In this document: piece after piece, positions 1-40,688 of the stretch | How the letters are laid out: the number at the start of each line of letters is the position of its first letter | Numbering within the stretch: the first letter of the stretch is position 1 | Virus record (IMG/VR): IMGVR_UViG_3300037510_000203 | Source: a virus | DNA length: 40,688 bases | Reading direction: 5' to 3' (one strand) | Made by a program: the position numbers and the translations under genes | The notes under the pieces: model-generated | Told to the model about the DNA's origin: nothing | What the model saw: only the letters and a program-made list of their open reading frames with translations | The model's database searches: none

Positions 1-127
1 TTGTAGCGACGCAGCGAGGCGCTGCAGATGTCCTTCCAGTCCTCGCTGGAGAGCTTCTGGCCGTACCAATCAACCTGCTTGGCGACCTGTCCGAGCAGAG
101 ACCAGAGCATGGCATTCTGATCGCAGC
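1..127. repeat. Terminal direct repeat, copy 1 (identical to 40562-40688)
   Basis: Read directly: ttgtagcgacgcagcgaggcgctgcagatg...catggcattctgatcgcagc occurs at both window ends. Confidence 0.97.
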
Positions 128-2996: not shown

Positions 2997-3590
2997 TCAC
3001 TTCACGGCGATCCAGGCCACCTTGGCCGCCCATTCGACGGCTTGATCCAGTAGGGGAGGGGCGTTTGTGGAATGTAGGTCGAAGTGTCTAGGCTTCCGCC
3101 CAGGATACAGTTTTTTGACAAGAATACGGCCATCATCGAGGCCGACGACACAAAGTCGATTGAAGAAACTCTCGTCGGGCGGAACCCTGCGTCTATCGTA
3201 GTAAAGCGTCCAGCCGTCTTCAAGCATTCCGGACATGCTATCGCCGCGAACGGTCACGGCAACAAGTTCGGCAACCCCTTCAACTGGTGGCATTTCCGCC
3301 TCACCGAACGGGCCCTGGCCGTCTGAAAACGCAATCGTCCCGCCAGCCCCGACGTAACCAACAATCGGAACCGTGGATTGCTCGATGTTCGACCCAGAGT
3401 TGAGAATCCCGAGCCCTCTAGCAACGTCCTCAATTGTGTTCGAATGATGAAGTTCCGGGTCGCTGCCCGACAACCAGCGAGATATAGTCGGTTGAGAGAC
3501 GCGGAAGAGGCGAGCTAGCTCGGCCTGGTTCTTCCGGGTCTTTTGCTGGACCTGCCGAACGATCCGGCTGTAATTTTTTGCGGTAGCCAT
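2997..3590 (-). CDS. cI: CI-type repressor (N-terminal XRE HTH plus C-terminal S24/LexA-like autopeptidase)
   Basis: QAELARLFRVSQPTISRWLSG HTH; VGAGG cleavage-site-like motif; GDSM serine motif and VKKL lysine motif. Start taken at MATAKNY (3590). Confidence 0.9.
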   Translation of the reverse strand: MATAKNYSRIVRQVQQKTRKNQAELARLFRVSQPTISRWLSGSDPELHHSNTIEDVARGLGILNSGSNIEQSTVPIVGYVGAGGTIAFSDGQGPFGEAEMPPVEGVAELVAVTVRGDSMSGMLEDGWTLYYDRRRVPPDESFFNRLCVVGLDDGRILVKKLYPGRKPRHFDLHSTNAPPLLDQAVEWAAKVAWIAVK

Positions 3591-3693
3591 ATCCAAATTA
3601 TGCACTGCCGCATCGCCGAATACCACGGAACATGAACGAATATCGATGCATGGGACTTGACGCCCTCGTATTCATATGCGTATTTATGCGTCC
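3591..3693. promoter_or_regulatory. Divergent PRM/PR region with operators
   Basis: Plus strand: TTGACG (3657-3662), 17-18 nt spacer, GTATTT/TATTTA, then 7 nt to the cro ATG at 3694. Minus strand: CATAAT (3597-3602), then 6 nt to the cI ATG at 3590. TATGCGT occurs at 3675 and 3685 (10-bp spacing), flanked by TTCAT...ATGAA. Confidence 0.6.
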
Positions 3694-3921
3694 ATGAATG
3701 CGATCAAACACATCAGAACCGAGATCTTCCGGATCAAGCAGGCTCCCTTTGCGGAGCTCGCCGGGGTTAGCCAGCCGACCGTCTCAAGGTGGGAGTCGGA
3801 CGAAAGAGGCTCTGAGCCAACCCGAGAAGAGATGGACAAGATACGGCAGGCTGCTGTTGCGCGCGGTCTGCCATGGAATGATGAGTGGTTCTTCCGTCTC
3901 CCATCGGAGACCGCCGCATGA
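3694..3921 (+). CDS. cro: Cro-like HTH regulator
   Basis: FAELAGVSQPTVSRWES HTH, divergent from cI. Start MNAIKH (3694) preferred because the 3676 ATG lies inside the operator/-10; 3676 is not excluded. Confidence 0.75.
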   Translation: MNAIKHIRTEIFRIKQAPFAELAGVSQPTVSRWESDERGSEPTREEMDKIRQAAVARGLPWNDEWFFRLPSETAA

Positions 3922-32985: not shown

Positions 32986-33081
32986 TGACCGGCGGCTAGC
33001 CATTAGATCTAGCACCATAGCTGCGATCGGCACGAGCGCCAGTCCAAGGACAAAGAGGGGGGGAGGCTTCATGGCGATCAT
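32806..33081 (-). CDS. Doubtful ORF: N-terminal TM segment, remainder antisense to 32602-32985
   Basis: ATGA overlap with the HNH stop favours it; the low-complexity R/S/D-rich tail argues against. Confidence 0.2.
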   Translation of the reverse strand: MIAMKPPPLFVLGLALVPIAAMVLDLMASRRSSTDDCPLLDQTDKPSTRSCWDRNRTGPAEKDSRQNVGRARRHDSDVSPICKNLNYGGWH

Positions 33082-33620
33082 TCGCGCTCAGCGCTGGATA
33101 CCCAAGCCTTATAGGCTTTCTTGCCATGCTTCAGAATGTACCGCGTATGCTCAATGGGCAGGGCGAGAGTCGCTCCACGCGGCAATGAGATGGGTTCTCC
33201 GTGTGCGATCATCGAGGCCATGGTTGCTCCTGGAACGCGGGAGGCTTCCTTTGACGCCTGCATGCGGATGCGGTCGCGTTCTTTGGCCCGCTGCCGACCT
33301 GCTGCGCTATTGATTGCCTCCATCTCGGAAATTGGAGCTTTGCCAAGTCGCGCCCGCTGACGATTCTGCTCATACAGGGCTCCGAGAGCATGGTTACAGC
33401 GACCATGAGCAAGCCGAACGTTGCCGGCGGTATTCACGCCGCCGTCTCGACGCGGTACCAAATGCTCAATAGTGGCCGCTTCCTGGTCCGTCGTGTGCTG
33501 GCGGCTATATGGCTTCATCGGGTGGTGGCATAGGCAGCACCGACCGCCTTGTTGTGCCCACCAATAGTCAACGACCATCAGCTTTTCATCTCGCGTACGC
33601 CATGCGAAATCAGGGCTCAT
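33078..33620 (-). CDS. HNH endonuclease
   Basis: CCLCHH...ATIEHLVPRRDGGVNTAGNVRLAHGRCNHALG. Confidence 0.75.
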   Translation of the reverse strand: MSPDFAWRTRDEKLMVVDYWWAQQGGRCCLCHHPMKPYSRQHTTDQEAATIEHLVPRRDGGVNTAGNVRLAHGRCNHALGALYEQNRQRARLGKAPISEMEAINSAAGRQRAKERDRIRMQASKEASRVPGATMASMIAHGEPISLPRGATLALPIEHTRYILKHGKKAYKAWVSSAERE

Positions 33621-33650
33621 CGTTCCTCTCGCTCATTGGCCAAGAGTGTT

Positions 33651-33737
33651 TGGCGCGAGGGCCAGGAATCGAACCTGGCGTAGCCATCCGGGAATCGAAC
33701 CCGGCAGTGGATATCTCCACCCGCACCAGCGCCTCGC
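33651..33737 (-). other. tRNA-derived block: two tandem T-arm/acceptor-like segments, the 3' one ending CCCTCGCGCCA (att-site or tRNA-remnant candidate)
   Basis: Minus strand reads CCGGGTTCGATTCCCGG (33688-33704) and CCAGGTTCGATTCCTGG (33662-33678), followed by a 7-nt acceptor strand, G, then CCA. The 5' GCGAGG can pair with the 3' CCTCGC. No D or anticodon arm is foldable. Confidence 0.5.
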
Positions 33738-33756
33738 GTTGTTCGCTTGGGATCGA

Positions 33757-33981
33757 TCAGGATAGAGCTTCTTTGGCGATCTTCCCAACGCCTTCGACCA
33801 CATGCCGCATGCAATAGGCGCTGACCGAGTCCAGCGTGATCCCGCCGGCTTCCAGCAATGCGCGGGCCTTCTTAAGATCGGGCTCGGGGAAGATATCCAA
33901 CGGATAGGCTTCGCTCCATTGGGCGATCTTGTGAAGAGCCTCCTCGAGTTCTTCAATACGGTCCTGCTGCGGTATGGTCAT
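33757..33981 (-). CDS. Hypothetical 74-aa protein
   Basis: ORF track. Confidence 0.6.
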   Translation of the reverse strand: MTIPQQDRIEELEEALHKIAQWSEAYPLDIFPEPDLKKARALLEAGGITLDSVSAYCMRHVVEGVGKIAKEALS

Positions 33982-33994
33982 CGTCGCTCCCTGC

Positions 33995-34273
33995 TCAACA
34001 TTGCGGTAGCGTACCGCGCCTCACAATTACTGCAGCGTCAACATCTGCCATCAGATCTACCATGGCGTGAGCGGCCTTTCTCCACGATTCAATGCGGTTC
34101 ATAGTAAGGCTCTCCAAGTAGTATTGGCGTAGGCCGTCAAGCATCAAATCTGCTGCATGAACTGGCCGTTCCAGAGACAACATCGTTTCAGGTACATAAT
34201 GACCTTGAACACGCATCCAGTCGAACCGACGCCGATGGTGCTCGTCTCGAATCTGCTGCAGTTCACCCTTCAT
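33995..34273 (-). CDS. Hypothetical 92-aa protein
   Basis: ORF track. Confidence 0.6.
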   Translation of the reverse strand: MKGELQQIRDEHHRRRFDWMRVQGHYVPETMLSLERPVHAADLMLDGLRQYYLESLTMNRIESWRKAAHAMVDLMADVDAAVIVRRGTLPQC

Positions 34274-34291
34274 GTCATCCTCGCTGTTCGG

Positions 34292-34537
34292 TCAGCAGTG
34301 GCGCGCGTGCCAGCGCTCAGTAGCGCCTCGGCGTGCCTCGTCTAGATCTTCGGCATTGTATCCAACCTGAGCCGAGCATTTCGTGCATGCAACAACAGAT
34401 CGGTAAATTCCGGTCTCATCGTTGATTTTGTTTATTGTGGCCGGAGTCCCGCCACAAAACGGGCAACCCTTCAGGACTCCGAACAATACCGAATTGATGT
34501 CCGTATCGTCAGGCGGCAAGTATCGCATCTCACCCAT
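34292..34537 (-). CDS. Lar-family restriction-alleviation-like protein
   Basis: GCPFCGG...VVACTKCSAQVG...EARRGATERWHAR fits the Lar-family pattern as recalled (CPFCG...C..C...eA..aWN.R). Start MGEMRYL. Confidence 0.6.
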   Translation of the reverse strand: MGEMRYLPPDDTDINSVLFGVLKGCPFCGGTPATINKINDETGIYRSVVACTKCSAQVGYNAEDLDEARRGATERWHARHC

Positions 34538-34697
34538 CGCATCGCTCCCCATTCGTAAGCGGGCGCTTGAAGAAGAATTCGACGTCGTCGACAATCTGAA
34601 CGAGCTCCCAGCCGATTTTCCCGAGTTCATCGAGCTTACCAGCGCGGTCTTCATCGCGCTTTGCAATGCGGAGGATGAGGTATTCCCATCGTTTCAT
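34530..34697 (-). CDS. DUF4177-like micro-protein (55 aa)
   Basis: Hand-translated MKRWEYLILRIAKRDEDRAGKLDELGKIGWELVQIVDDVEFFFKRPLTNGERCDG. Not in the ORF track. 8-nt overlap with the Lar-like start. Confidence 0.5.
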   Translation of the reverse strand: MKRWEYLILRIAKRDEDRAGKLDELGKIGWELVQIVDDVEFFFKRPLTNGERCDG

Positions 34698-34708
34698 CGT
34701 CTCGCTCC

Positions 34709-34897
34709 CTACTGATGAACGCCAGAAAGCGCATTCCGCCCAGCTTCGGTCAGATAGAAGGCTCGAACCGTTTCGTACACTAAGCCCATCTTTTGCAGCA
34801 CCTCGAACGTTGGCATCCTGTTATCGATAAGGCGATATCCGAAAGATTGCCCCGCTTTTTTAAGGCAATCCAGTTGCTCTGCAGTAAGGTTAGCCAT
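34709..34897 (-). CDS. Hypothetical 62-aa protein
   Basis: ORF track. Confidence 0.55.
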   Translation of the reverse strand: MANLTAEQLDCLKKAGQSFGYRLIDNRMPTFEVLQKMGLVYETVRAFYLTEAGRNALSGVHQ

Positions 34898-34936
34898 TGT
34901 TCTTATCCTCTCCCGCGATGAATCATTCAGCGCAGA

Positions 34937-35137
34937 TTATTGAGCAGCGCGCTTGAGTGCACGGATGCGGTCTTGAACGCCACGCAAAAGCGCTTCGGTT
35001 TCACGAGCCGGCAGGTCTCCGACCTTGTCCGGGCCGGTCAATAATGGGTCGCACCAGTTGGCTGGCACGCACCTGGCGCACTCGTCGATTATAGCGTTTC
35101 GAATGACGTCGATCGCTGGCTTGGCCTTCTTGCTCAT
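34937..35137 (-). CDS. Hypothetical 66-aa protein
   Basis: ORF track. Confidence 0.55.
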   Translation of the reverse strand: MSKKAKPAIDVIRNAIIDECARCVPANWCDPLLTGPDKVGDLPARETEALLRGVQDRIRALKRAAQ

Positions 35138-35152: not shown

Positions 35153-36181
35153 TCAATTGCTGACGGGACGATTGCGAAACTGCAGGCGCTTTGCTTGCAC
35201 CTGAGCGATCTTCGCATTCGTGTTTCGGCTATATCTCTGGGTCTGGGCTATATCCGAGTGAGTGGCGGCGTGCTTCACATGCTCGATCTCGGCGCCGGCC
35301 TCGGTGGCCTCGGTGATGCCGCCGGCGCGGGAGTCCTGATTGCGAACGTCCTTCGGGATGCCAGCCTGGTCAGCCACGATCCGCCACTTTCGCCGGAATT
35401 CACTCGTGGTCCACGGCCATCCAGTGGTATCGCTGACGACCATCGCCCCGTCAGCCGGGCGATACGGATTGTGCTGAAGTTCCTCAAGGACCATCGGAGC
35501 TGATTTCAGGTCGACTTCGATCAGCTTCTGACGCTTGCTGGTGACGTGCCGTAGGATCCAGTTGTCGTCGATTTCGGACCAGCGGAGACCGCGGAGCCAC
35601 TTCATGCCGTTGAACCGGATGGAACTTTCGCCGGGCTCAGTCTCCGGCACCCACTCGCCGATCACATCCTTTTGACGAAGCAAAAGCTCGAACTGAATAG
35701 CCTGCGCGAGAGCGATCGAATGCCAGCCGAAATGGTTGCGTGCCGTTTCTCGAATCGCCACCGCATGGTCGGCCGTCAGGAAATTGACGCGAGCCTGGGT
35801 CTGGGCAAACTTCATTTTGCTCATGACCACGCTCAGGCGCTCGCACTCCCGGTCCTCGAGCATGAGCAGGCCGAAGCTGAATAGGGTCCGGAGCTGGGCA
35901 ACGAAAGCGTGCCCCATGGATAGCTTCCCGCCGGCCGACCAGCCATCGTACCATATTTGAATGGTGCTCGCTCGGATGCTGGACAGGGCTTCTTGGCCGT
36001 GCTCCTCCTCCAGCCTGCAAAGCAGACGATTGTAGTTGAGCCGGACCTGATAGCGAAGTTTGTGATAGGCTGATGCTCGGTGGGTCCGGTACTCTGTGAT
36101 CAGCCCGCCGAACGTCAGCGGCACAGTTTCGGAACAGATTGAGCCTGATGTTCCTGCATCGTTCATGATTTTTAGCCCCAT
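35153..36181 (-). CDS. Tyrosine recombinase/integrase B
   Basis: Catalytic-type residues by eye: LLLRQKD (Arg I), NQDSRAGG (Arg II; N in place of His I), HATHSD...QRYSR (His, Tyr). Confidence 0.8.
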   Translation of the reverse strand: MGLKIMNDAGTSGSICSETVPLTFGGLITEYRTHRASAYHKLRYQVRLNYNRLLCRLEEEHGQEALSSIRASTIQIWYDGWSAGGKLSMGHAFVAQLRTLFSFGLLMLEDRECERLSVVMSKMKFAQTQARVNFLTADHAVAIRETARNHFGWHSIALAQAIQFELLLRQKDVIGEWVPETEPGESSIRFNGMKWLRGLRWSEIDDNWILRHVTSKRQKLIEVDLKSAPMVLEELQHNPYRPADGAMVVSDTTGWPWTTSEFRRKWRIVADQAGIPKDVRNQDSRAGGITEATEAGAEIEHVKHAATHSDIAQTQRYSRNTNAKIAQVQAKRLQFRNRPVSN

Positions 36182-36211
36182 AAACCAACGTTAAGTGGTT
36201 GATATTTATAG

Positions 36212-36287
36212 AGGCTAAGTCGTTTACACCGAGAGGGTCGGCGGTTCGAATCCGTCACCGCCTACCACGATTTCAACGACTTAGCCT
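36212..36287. repeat. Perfect 13-bp inverted repeat bracketing the tRNA-like fragment
   Basis: AGGCTAAGTCGTT (36212-36224) and AACGACTTAGCCT (36275-36287), 50-nt spacer. Confidence 0.9.
36219..36267 (+). other. tRNA-Val(TAC)-like 3' fragment: probable attP core
   Basis: TCG TTTACAC CGAGA GGGTC GGCGG TTCGAAT CCGTC ACCGCCT A CCA, i.e. anticodon loop, variable loop, T-arm, acceptor 3' strand and CCA. No 5' half. T-arm/acceptor closely resemble E. coli tRNA-Val(UAC) as recalled. Confidence 0.6.
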
Positions 36288-36325
36288 AACTCACTCGATA
36301 CAACGGATCAGCTTCGGATCAGTTA

Positions 36326-37315
36326 TCATACCTCGGCGGCCCTGGATTGGAAGTCCGGAGAATGCTTTCCGTAGACTTTTGTCAGGATGCTCACAGACAT
36401 TCCGAGCGCGCCGGCGGCCTCCCAGATGTCGATTCCTGCCTGCATCAGCCACGTCGCGCGCGTGTGGCGCAGCGTGTGCGGGCTGACGTCCTCAAGCTTG
36501 GCTTCCTTGCAGGCGGCCGCCCATGATCTCCGGAGCTTCTGGACGGGCTTGCCGTCGTAATGGACCACCCACGGGATCTTGCCGTCCTTGGCCTTCCAGC
36601 GCTTCATTAGGCGCACGACCGATCGGCCGAGCCGCACAGGTGGCTTGCGCTTGTTGGCGGCTTCCGTCTCGCCGGCGCTTTTTCGGTTCATGACGCCGCG
36701 GGCTAGGTCGATCTGATCCCAGCGGAGATTGAGCAGAACTCCGGATCTCGATCCGGTTTTGAGGCCAAGGATCACGAAACGGTAAAGGTGCTGGTACTTC
36801 ATCGCAGCTTGGCGCAGCCGCTTTGCCTCTGCCTGGGTCAGCCACCGTTCGCGCGGCTGCGACTTCTCAGGCAGGACAACGACCGGCGCGCGCGCCAAGG
36901 CGGCCTTATGCTTGTGCCAGTAGAGCAGGGAGGCCCGCAGCACCTCGAGGTCGCGCCTGGCCGCGGCGGCCGGCCGATCTAAAGCGTAGGCGGTGCAGTT
37001 GTCCGAGTTCACGTCGTCTGCTCTCTTCTTGCCCCAGAAGGGCGTCAGGTTCGAAATGTTGTGTGCGGCCTTGCCAGGGGTCCGCGTCTTCGGCAATCGC
37101 TCGGTGGCATAGACGAGAAGAACATCGGCGATCAGCGGCGATGCCACAGCCGCCGGCTTGTATTTTGCGGCTATGTATTCCGCGAGCTTCTTTTCAGCTC
37201 TCTCGTTTTCTGACTCAGCGCAACCAATGCGGACGAACTTTGATCCGTCTCGGATAACGATCTCTTTTCGCGCTCGATCTCGGTAGAGGCGCGGCCCTTT
37301 GGATTTTCTCGGCAT
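36326..37315 (-). CDS. int: Tyrosine integrase A
   Basis: TGSRSG (Arg I), HTLRHT (His-x-x-Arg), KVYGKHSP (Tyr). N-terminal MPRKSKGPRLY...IRDG typical of alphaproteobacterial phage integrases as recalled. Xis-like gene upstream. Confidence 0.9.
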   Translation of the reverse strand: MPRKSKGPRLYRDRARKEIVIRDGSKFVRIGCAESENERAEKKLAEYIAAKYKPAAVASPLIADVLLVYATERLPKTRTPGKAAHNISNLTPFWGKKRADDVNSDNCTAYALDRPAAAARRDLEVLRASLLYWHKHKAALARAPVVVLPEKSQPRERWLTQAEAKRLRQAAMKYQHLYRFVILGLKTGSRSGVLLNLRWDQIDLARGVMNRKSAGETEAANKRKPPVRLGRSVVRLMKRWKAKDGKIPWVVHYDGKPVQKLRRSWAAACKEAKLEDVSPHTLRHTRATWLMQAGIDIWEAAGALGMSVSILTKVYGKHSPDFQSRAAEV

Positions 37316-40408: not shown

Positions 40409-40688
40409 GCCACTTCCTCCGCAAATTCACGGAACTTCACGCCACGTTCTGTTCCAAAAGCCACAATCAGCTCAATGAGAGCTGTCATCTCGGCCTTGGT
40501 CATCTGGCTGGTGCGCATGCCGAGCGGGACGAATGTTCCCGCGTCAATGCCCGGCACCACGTTGTAGCGACGCAGCGAGGCGCTGCAGATGTCCTTCCAG
40601 TCCTCGCTGGAGAGCTTCTGGCCGTACCAATCAACCTGCTTGGCGACCTGTCCGAGCAGAGACCAGAGCATGGCATTCTGATCGCAGC
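40405..40688 (-). CDS. ninB: NinB/Orf-like recombination mediator, 3' part (the 5' end lies at 1-239 across the junction)
   Basis: LWSLLGQVAKQVDWYGQKLSSEDWKDICSASL..VVPGIDAGTFVPLGMRTSQMTKAEMTALIELIVAFGTERGVKF parallels lambda NinB (LWACLGDVSRQVEWHGRWLDAESWK...LIQAFGTERGVKW) as recalled. Confidence 0.8.
   Translation of the reverse strand, partial: CDQNAMLWSLLGQVAKQVDWYGQKLSSEDWKDICSASLRRYNVVPGIDAGTFVPLGMRTSQMTKAEMTALIELIVAFGTERGVKFREFAEEVA
40562..40688. repeat. Terminal direct repeat, copy 2 (identical to 1-127)
   Basis: Same 127 nt as the window start. Confidence 0.97.

Follow-up and report, generated by a model that had tools for sequence, protein, structure and literature searches.

The window analysed here is the whole stretch of 40,688 nucleotides of the virus record IMGVR_UViG_3300037510_000203 (IMG/VR). 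Two open reading frames (ORFs) for tyrosine recombinases, IntA and IntB, lie on its minus strand on either side of a spacer of 144 bp (36182-36325), just as a preliminary description had laid them out; the motifs quoted there for both proteins are present and fall at catalytic positions. The phage attachment site (attP) lies in and around this spacer. The features on which the argument depends are the following.

36326..37315, minus strand: IntA, 329 amino acids, tyrosine integrase of the type of phage 16-3, PF00589 with 64.1 bits
35153..36181, minus strand: IntB, 342 amino acids, core-binding and catalytic domains only, PF00589 with 30.7 bits
37171..37602, minus strand: Xis-like gene, homologue of the 16-3 Xis, its 3' end overlapping the start of IntA by 145 nt
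36220..36267, plus strand: attP core, the 3' 48 nt of a tRNA-Val(TAC), beginning with the final 3 nt of the anticodon stem's 5' strand and ending with the CCA
36116..36330, no strand assigned: predicted attP of IntA, approximate limits, comprising P arm, 48-bp core and P' arm and bounded by two arm motifs

The spacer had been taken for an attP carrying the 3' part of a tRNA-Val(TAC), and host genomes bear this out. Positions 36220-36267 matched exactly in 54 of 185,579 species genomes, among them Afipia birgiae, A. massiliensis and other Afipia, Tardiphaga, Rhodopseudomonas rhenobacensis and metagenome-assembled genomes (MAGs) of Bradyrhizobium. All but one of these matches (53 of 54) form the 3' part of an intact gene, reading GGGCGGTTAGCTCAGCTGGTTAGAGCATC and then TCGTTTACAC...CCA, and ARAGORN identified tRNA-Val(TAC) in five of five intact genes checked. 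Identity between window and host ends 0-3 nt from either edge of the core, a match far beyond chance; at 48 nt the fragment is one base shorter than the 36219-36267 originally proposed. As in other tRNA-targeting attP sites, the phage holds the 3' part of the tRNA without the 5' part, identical to the host up to the CCA. A complete tRNA in the spacer was ruled out: ARAGORN detected none anywhere in the window, and the Rfam tRNA model aligned to the 3' half only, with a sub-threshold 18 bits. The genome was also searched for a second copy of the core or spacer sequence, which would mark an inserted element or a site of IntB; there was none. With a single core copy and no second att, the captured integrative element that had been suggested is unlikely. 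For this uncultured phage the 48-nt match gives the likely host range, namely Afipia, Tardiphaga, Rhodopseudomonas and Bradyrhizobium.

Two copies of a short motif, direct repeats of each other, bound the predicted attP.

36305..36317, minus strand: P-arm motif CCGAAGCTGATCC, directly past the IntA stop codon, candidate arm-type site of IntA
36120..36132, minus strand: P'-arm motif CCGAAACTGTGCC, within the first ~20 codons of IntB

Of the 11 IntA-type attP or attL sequences with a located T-loop, 10 had the P-arm motif, at -43 to -65 relative to this loop; the P'-arm motif stood at +120 in 8 of 8 free IntA-type attP sequences, regardless of the gene that follows. In nearly all IntA-type attP regions the motif CCGAAnCTGnnCC stands at about -65 and exactly +120, and in lysogens only the -65 copy remains beside IntA. 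The copies are probably arm-type sites. Since they are kept at -65/+120 in phages that possess IntA only, the attP is best assigned to IntA. Its predicted size resembles the 260 bp of the functional attP annotated in the 16-3 record.

IntA matches a PHROG integrase family and has the residues of a tyrosine recombinase: R190, K222, H280-x-x-R283 and Y315 are invariant among 24 family members. Equally invariant is M306, at the position of the third His/Trp of most recombinases, and the functional 16-3 Int has the same substitution. Residue 306 is encoded at about 36398-36400 of the window, and the Met is present family-wide. IntA and 16-3 Int are 35 % identical over the full length, and from its sequence IntA appears to have an N-terminal arm-binding region of its own. 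The ratio of nonsynonymous to synonymous substitution rates (dN/dS) of intA is 0.074 in comparison to L001, a contig sharing both recombinase genes with the window. The gene preceding IntA had been described as AlpA/Xis-like. Its product is indeed a homologue of the 16-3 excisionase (33 % identity over 108 amino acids, E 3e-13), but the AlpA affiliation did not hold, as neither Pfam, with its AlpA-type families, nor PHROG gave a match. Homologous Int and Xis proteins, a xis gene overlapping int and an attP abutting the int stop codon constitute a module of the 16-3 type. It is a distant member because the identity is only 33-35 %, and the tRNA target also differs. Xis, IntA and attP are a new tRNA-Val member of this known type and otherwise ordinary.

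Integrated relatives revealed how the site is used. Prophage borders of Bradyrhizobium elkanii and of Bradyrhizobium sp. 87 carry IntA homologues with 73-74 % identity. Between the 3' end of each homologue and an intact tRNA-Val(TAC) in convergent orientation there are 58 bp, and beyond the tRNA come the host genes lon, clpX, clpP and tig; both genomes present attL-type junctions. Free viral contigs have IntA homologues of 73-81 % identity, with a tRNA-Val fragment like that of the window behind them. An integrated relative with both att junctions was present on the JGI contig Ga0494380_0005009 (13.5 kb, our loci L011 and L147). Its first end carries host M20 peptidase and methyltransferase genes, then come a displaced 48-nt tRNA-Val fragment (L011, about 1877-1924), an IntB homologue with 53 % identity, small genes over ~9 kb, an IntA homologue with 84 % identity and, 58 bp further on, the intact tRNA-Val(TAC) (L147, 11049-11125), before host DNA resumes. 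Such a copy, with the intact tRNA on one side and the displaced 3' fragment on the other, is exactly the product of integration via an attP between the two genes, hence the att site between the genes is used. The preliminary description had proposed to look for the host tRNA-Val 3' end, for attL/attR junctions and for the site occupied by integrated copies. The first is the exact match in the 54 species genomes, the second was seen in the integrated relative with the recombinase genes at opposite ends, and for the third the IntA relatives adjoin the intact tRNA-Val in the Bradyrhizobium lysogens.

The element between the tRNA-Val repeats of this relative (L011 1877-13041 plus L147) is only about 11.5 kb long. 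It lacks structural genes and encodes both recombinases, an acyltransferase_3, an acetyltransferase, an HNH and a D123 protein. Either this is a prophage that has decayed, or the element is satellite-like. The 54 host tRNA-Val loci themselves had no close IntA or IntB gene alongside, only a remnant (L030) and, in an Afipia MAG (L033, 1963-3219), an integrase 33 % identical to IntA that adjoins a tRNA-Val 3' fragment without 5' half. A Tardiphaga MAG (L056, 4109-4130) has AAACGACTTAGGG after its tRNA-Val, a sequence similar to the arm of the phage on the IntA side and perhaps a remnant; no IntA was present within 8 kb.

The position of IntB past the attP is occupied differently in close relatives. 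The closest one, L279, belongs to the same phage lineage (IntA protein 98 % identical, early region 91 % identical on the DNA level), yet has a gene for 79 amino acids at the position of IntB. Its homology with the window extends from 37531 to 36120 and breaks at the last base of the P'-arm motif. Six further IntA phages (L150-L155) have the attP and an initial ~17 codons (MNDsGTSGSICAETVP) in common with the window, before continuing into unrelated small proteins. Because only these leader codons are shared, the first ~16-21 codons of IntB are attP sequence, with the body of the recombinase fused to it in frame. The true start of IntB is probably the ATG at 36166 (MNDAG..., 337 amino acids), which is the start conserved in relatives. 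An attP arm can thus encode the promoter-proximal leader of any gene landing beside it, a point relevant to the annotation of prophage ends. The first gene slot past the attP is hypervariable, and IntB would be dispensable for the reaction of IntA with attP, because L279 and L150-L155 have the same attP with unrelated genes in its place. The preliminary description had counted absence of IntB from close relatives, or its catalytic death, against itself. The former is what we observed, even next to a 98 % identical IntA, the latter is not, as the catalytic residues are intact.

IntB is a more divergent protein. It matches a PHROG integrase family, and its PF00589 score lies just above the cut-off of 27.1 bits. 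Among 1872 homologues there are short and long forms, and in both the residues R169 (LLLRQKD), K216/K219, R285 (NQDSRAGG), H308 and Y317 are invariant, while the His of the HxxR motif is replaced by Q, M or C throughout the family (residue 282 in IntB, at about 35336-35338 of the window). The AlphaFold model (predicted local distance difference test, pLDDT, 84.7) has disordered residues 1-18 and core-binding helices from residue 24 onwards. Its best matches in the PDB are structures of lambda Int 75-356, i.e. the core-binding and catalytic domains, with a template modelling (TM) score of 0.74. By the PF00589 match, the invariant residues and this predicted fold, IntB belongs to the tyrosine recombinase superfamily. 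It is not an arm-binding (heterobivalent) integrase, being without the beta-beta-beta-alpha N-terminal domain of the long forms. These proteins of ~400-470 amino acids represent most of the family. For their additional ~75 residues at the N-terminus, a high-confidence prediction gives three beta strands and a helix, the layout of lambda-type arm-binding domains; Pfam recognised no family in this domain, and the whole long-form model aligns to full-length lambda Int. The long forms inspected have a small winged helix-turn-helix (wHTH) or Xis-like gene upstream, and the long members look like ordinary solo phage integrases. The family has apparently shed the modelled arm-binding domain more than once. 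IntB had been regarded as a complete integrase: this is correct for the core-binding and catalytic protein, but the N-terminal domain present at 97 of 119 classified distinct loci is missing. The arrangement in the window is one complete 16-3-type integrase together with one arm-less recombinase fused to its attP.

Our preferred reading, to which we assign a probability of roughly 60 %, is that IntA, Xis and attP integrate the phage at tRNA-Val, and that IntB is a dispensable but selected arm-less recombinase that is not required for this reaction.

Selection on IntB was deduced from the comparison with L001. Window and L001 share only the block from the 3' part of xis over IntA and attP to IntB (37491-35169, 86 % identical) and nothing on either side; the homology stops before the stop codon of IntB. 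The dN/dS of IntB is 0.036, and the gene is under strong purifying selection. Synonymous divergence (dS) is 1.49 for IntB and 0.47 for IntA, therefore the two sides of the attP have different histories. This threefold gap (window 35153-37315, L001 2244-4403) suggests a more recent exchange of the IntA-attP side. The values bear on the idea that IntB is a functionless by-product of module shuffling, joined in frame by a chance illegitimate event and not yet decayed. An accident of this kind would agree with the breakpoint exactly at the end of the P'-arm motif, with the hypervariability of the slot and with the absence of IntB from close relatives. A dN/dS of 0.036 at a dS of about 1.5 indicates, however, a long persistence under constraint, all catalytic residues are retained, and such fusions are found again with several partner families, as described below. 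We consider it the least probable of all explanations.

Dual-site integration, in which IntB would act independently as a second integrase, using an attP of its own and a separate host attB, had been proposed at the outset and gained no support, as no second attP is visible. The intact catalytic residues of IntB would suit such a role, and so would the long-form relatives, which resemble solo integrases, with their small upstream wHTH or Xis-like gene, at prophage ends. But IntB lacks the domain modelled as arm-binding, a domain on which the integrases of mobile elements are reported to depend (survey PMC8138268). A conserved site downstream of IntB is missing, since its stop codon is only 15 bp away from the next ORF and the homology to L001 has ended before; at the single long-form prophage end examined, the att site is downstream of the integrase. 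All sequence upstream as far as 36120 is attP of IntA, present also in phages without IntB, and the spacer sequence is not repeated elsewhere in the genome. Neither the genome repeats nor the comparison with L001 yielded an att site for IntB itself. With zero of 80 viral IntB-relative loci preceded by a tRNA fragment, the family is not generally tRNA-targeting. Altogether, dual-site integration is very unlikely, and the reading of IntB as a selected recombinase not required for the tRNA-Val reaction is preferred.

For the long forms, a prophage record was inspected. The gene for the 425-amino-acid long form of Bradyrhizobium phage ppBjS10J-1 (OP596615) has its 3' end at the end of the record. 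It was rejected as a tRNA-Val integrase: no tRNA fragment is present at its end, and the left end of the record is host DNA. This record, a 'complete genome' in GenBank, starts with a partial tRNA-Asp, an HU gene and a peptidase T gene (OP596615.1 1-1934, L197); because the start looks like host flank, it appears to represent prophage coordinates with loose boundaries.

The neighbourhood of IntB relatives is not random. We classified 165 IntB-family loci on viral and metagenome contigs, of which 119 were distinct, 97 with long and 22 with short forms. Within the 4-5 kb of flank covered, with more than 1.5 kb upstream at 66 of the 97 loci, no long form had a second integrase (0/97). Among the 22 short forms, 11 had a complete integrase on the same strand ending 10-360 bp upstream, three were integrated with host DNA directly upstream and eight had other neighbours. 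A second integrase upstream was thus present at 11 of 19 short-form loci not seen as integrated versus 0 of 97 long-form loci (Fisher test, p about 1e-10). The partner integrases belong to at least three families, one 16-3-like, a second with 1277 homologues and a third, and the cores in the spacers differ between tRNA-Val, other tRNA-like 3' ends and a non-tRNA site. Two integrases around one att, called unusual in the preliminary description, are less so in view of this recurrence with at least three families; literature searches on two integrases flanking an attP found no description of such an architecture. The integrated L010 matches the free contigs L067 and L068 only from ~95 bp upstream of its IntB homologue; L010 is an integrated counterpart of the L067/L068 pair, with the junction between the two genes and the pair separated. 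A search for an integrated pair with the second-family partner in cultured bacteria gave no usable genome with both prophage ends among the matches looked up.

Several observations were made on the spacers of these pairs. In the second-family spacers (L067 3828-3960, L068 3800-3990, L010 9900-10040) several TGCCTAAC repeats are located on both sides of the inferred crossover and reach into the first codons of the IntB homologue; they are likely arm sites. tRNA-like 3' ends occur in the spacers of L092 (~3860-3900), L095 (~3800-3830), L198 (~3330-3370) and L111 (~3640-3680). The reverse complement of ATGGTGGGAGAGGTAG in partner-IntB spacers reads ...CTCTCCCACCA, and the L111 spacer contains GGTCGTCAGTTCAATCCTGACCGGCAGCACCA, oriented like the int genes.

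The pairing invites the explanation that IntB works together with IntA at one att, as an arm-less recombinase on core half-sites of the IntA intasome in the manner of XerC/XerD. Its contribution could be one pair of the strand exchanges, a higher efficiency or a biased direction of recombination, being helpful rather than essential. Besides the position of short forms across the attP from a full integrase at 11 of 19 loci, with none for 97 long forms, this idea draws on the IntA-attP-IntB block moving as a unit between different phages, on both genes being intact in the reduced 11.5-kb element, on the start of IntB embedded in the P' arm of IntA and on the gaps in the active sites, IntA being without the usual third His and IntB without the second. 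Yet each of these residue variants is family-wide and occurs in solo members too, the same attP is used by phages with IntA only, and eight short forms have no neighbouring integrase. The at least three unrelated partner families with different cores would demand that the core specificity of IntB was retuned repeatedly, and the type of partner does not follow IntB relatedness. A partnership at the tRNA-Val core is in our view unlikely, and we favour an IntB that the reaction of IntA does not need.

Phylogeny points to another possibility. Short forms never formed a cluster in 200 bootstrap neighbour-joining trees (0/200), at a divergence that gives these trees a weak resolution, and with 64 % identity to long forms and at most 57 % to short ones, the IntB homologue of L011 is nearer to the former. 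IntB may be a decoy or interference protein in the competition of temperate phages: a stolen, arm-stripped integrase that occupies or cleaves the core sites of long-form phages, whose integration into, or excision from, a lysogen would be blocked or poisoned. The scattered short forms suggest repeated capture from long-form lineages, although trees are poorly resolved at 50-65 % identity, and for such a function the DNA specificity need not change. Exclusion and conversion genes are typically found in the accessory slot at the prophage end, which is where IntB resides, in L011 beside the acyltransferase, and purifying selection without a visible att site of its own would also be understandable. 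But literature searches on arm-less decoy integrases found no precedent, PADLOC defence models matched neither IntB nor the six genes downstream, and the idea is inferential in its entirety. We consider the decoy rather improbable. Taken more broadly, arm-less IntB-type recombinases may form a recurrent, selected accessory class at the attP boundary that acts on the recombination machinery of other elements, either as a decoy that blocks or poisons integration and excision of competing IntB-type phages or in trans as a modulator of the neighbouring intasome. This generalisation is tentative, and we would not count on it. In either version, temperate phages would have a form of att-site interference or immunity that has not been described in them so far.

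Returning to the preferred reading, the sequence of events is envisaged as follows. Integration would be performed by the 16-3-type module, whose parts are Xis, IntA and an attP about 215 bp long. From the anatomy of the site and its relatives, IntA would recombine the 48-bp core with the 3' part of the host tRNA-Val(TAC) gene. The crossover is most likely near the anticodon stem-loop end of the identity block, as general knowledge on tRNA-targeting integrases suggests, and the rebuilt tRNA would have its 5' part from the host and its 3' part from the phage. As in the integrated relative, the genes for Xis and IntA would then be located beside the rebuilt tRNA, and IntB at the far prophage end next to the displaced fragment. 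We regard the integration mechanism as settled as far as sequence permits. IntB itself is a family member shortened by the loss of the modelled arm-binding domain and joined in frame to a leader encoded by the P' arm. Because the catalytic residues of the family are kept and purifying selection is strong, IntB most likely still binds and cleaves core-type DNA sites. Its DNA target is more likely a site type inherited from the long forms, or another site, than the tRNA-Val core. On the circular genome IntB is situated directly downstream of xis-intA in the leftward early operon, no terminator being predicted between them, and integration detaches it from this operon. Since the link is cut, the expression of IntB probably depends on the state of the attP.

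Several points weigh against this reading. The far prophage ends were seen for one relative only. A scan of the spacer for promoters and terminators predicted none, and hence no promoter for IntB, but applied an E. coli-type consensus. The function of the long-form N-terminal domain as arm-site binder is modelled, from a predicted fold. The second His position of IntB is not His, a feature shared with long forms that resemble working integrases. The repeated pairing of short forms with an adjacent integrase, an IntB kept beside IntA in the reduced 11.5-kb element and an IntA-attP-IntB block common to otherwise unrelated phages may together tie IntB to recombination at the neighbouring att.

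The consequences depend on the role of the short forms. If they act on att sites in trans, they represent a new layer of lysogeny control or of conflict; if instead each simply acts alone as a recombinase, they may turn out to be compact enzymes that need no arm and have new site specificities.

The remaining features of the window place the recombinases in their genomic context.

1..127, no strand assigned: terminal overlap, identical to 40562-40688
36212..36231, plus strand: left arm of an inverted repeat, 20 nt with 12 nt perfect (GGCTAAGTCGTT), overlapping the start of the core
36268..36287, plus strand: right arm of this repeat, adjoining the CCA on its 3' side

Because of the terminal assembly overlap the contig is circular, and the window is a complete temperate phage genome of ~40.56 kb (about 40,561 bp). 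Among its genes are those for a terminase, a portal and a major head protein, Erf, an exonuclease and a CI-like repressor; GenBank phages had no similarity to the window on the DNA level. The genes for Erf and the exonuclease are upstream of xis and intA on the same strand. Past IntB, the minus-strand genes (33078-35137) are small and mostly without assigned function, with exceptions in a homologue of Lar-like restriction-alleviation proteins (34292-34666) and an HNH endonuclease (33078-33620). At other IntB loci there was no linkage of IntB with these downstream genes.

The 20-nt inverted repeat at the core has only two copies in the window, with 0.08 expected, and several relatives have a GCTAAGTnnTTG-like sequence on their IntA side. 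The 12-bp perfect repeat was dismissed both as an RNA hairpin and as a site of IntB: it is not kept in the L011 lineage, and in L001 one arm has an uncompensated mismatch. The other candidate for a site of IntB was an invertible segment, which the preliminary description had entertained with an invertase role. The sole strong inverted-repeat pair of the genome (27 nt, 2915-2941/3657-3683, 89 % complementary, TTGACGCCC...TATTCATATGCGTAT) brackets the CI-like repressor gene (2997-3626, minus strand) and is promoter-like, so that this candidate was rejected as well. The pair reads as a duplicated divergent early promoter/operator similar to lambda PL/PR, and a recombination site is unlikely.

Known systems share parts of this arrangement. 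Rhizobium phage 16-3 is the closest for the IntA side: the relationship includes the unusual LGM motif that replaces the third His, xis overlaps int in both phages, and in both the attP begins at the int stop codon. More distant IntA relatives adjoin tRNA-Pro(CGG), which we take to be the target of 16-3, whereas the phage of the window targets tRNA-Val(TAC). Past the attP of 16-3 there is no recombinase gene, the next annotated gene being ~500 bp away. The gene order of the window, with an early leftward operon, recombination genes, xis, int, attP and accessory genes, corresponds to that of lambda, where the slot of IntB corresponds to the b region, but lambda has no second recombinase past its attP. 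On the protein level, the predicted fold of IntB matches that of the core-binding and catalytic domains of lambda Int and its long-form relatives match the full-length protein, but sequence identity is only 14-17 % and IntB has a Gln at the position of the lambda His308. Long forms such as that of ppBjS10J-1 have 49-58 % identity to IntB across the core-binding and catalytic domains. They agree with IntB in the invariant R, K, R, H and Y and in lacking a His at the second position; they differ in the N-terminal domain of ~75 amino acids and in the lack of a nearby second integrase.

Two recombinase genes of one superfamily side by side at a single recombination site recall XerC/XerD, and in Tn554 the two tyrosine recombinases TnpA and TnpB act together. 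In contrast to XerC/XerD, IntA appears to work alone in close relatives, IntA and IntB are not close paralogues, and the partner family varies. The same attP in relatives with IntA only counts, if indirectly, against a requirement for both proteins. For a phage that retains a recombinase fold for a task other than integration, MrpR (YopR) of SPbeta, a repressor, is a precedent that we liken to IntB by its description (PMC10516654); unlike MrpR, IntB retains the full catalytic set of its family, so a loss of catalysis is not indicated. Compared with all of these, the variant in which an integrase and its attP recurrently come together with an arm-less integrase is new.

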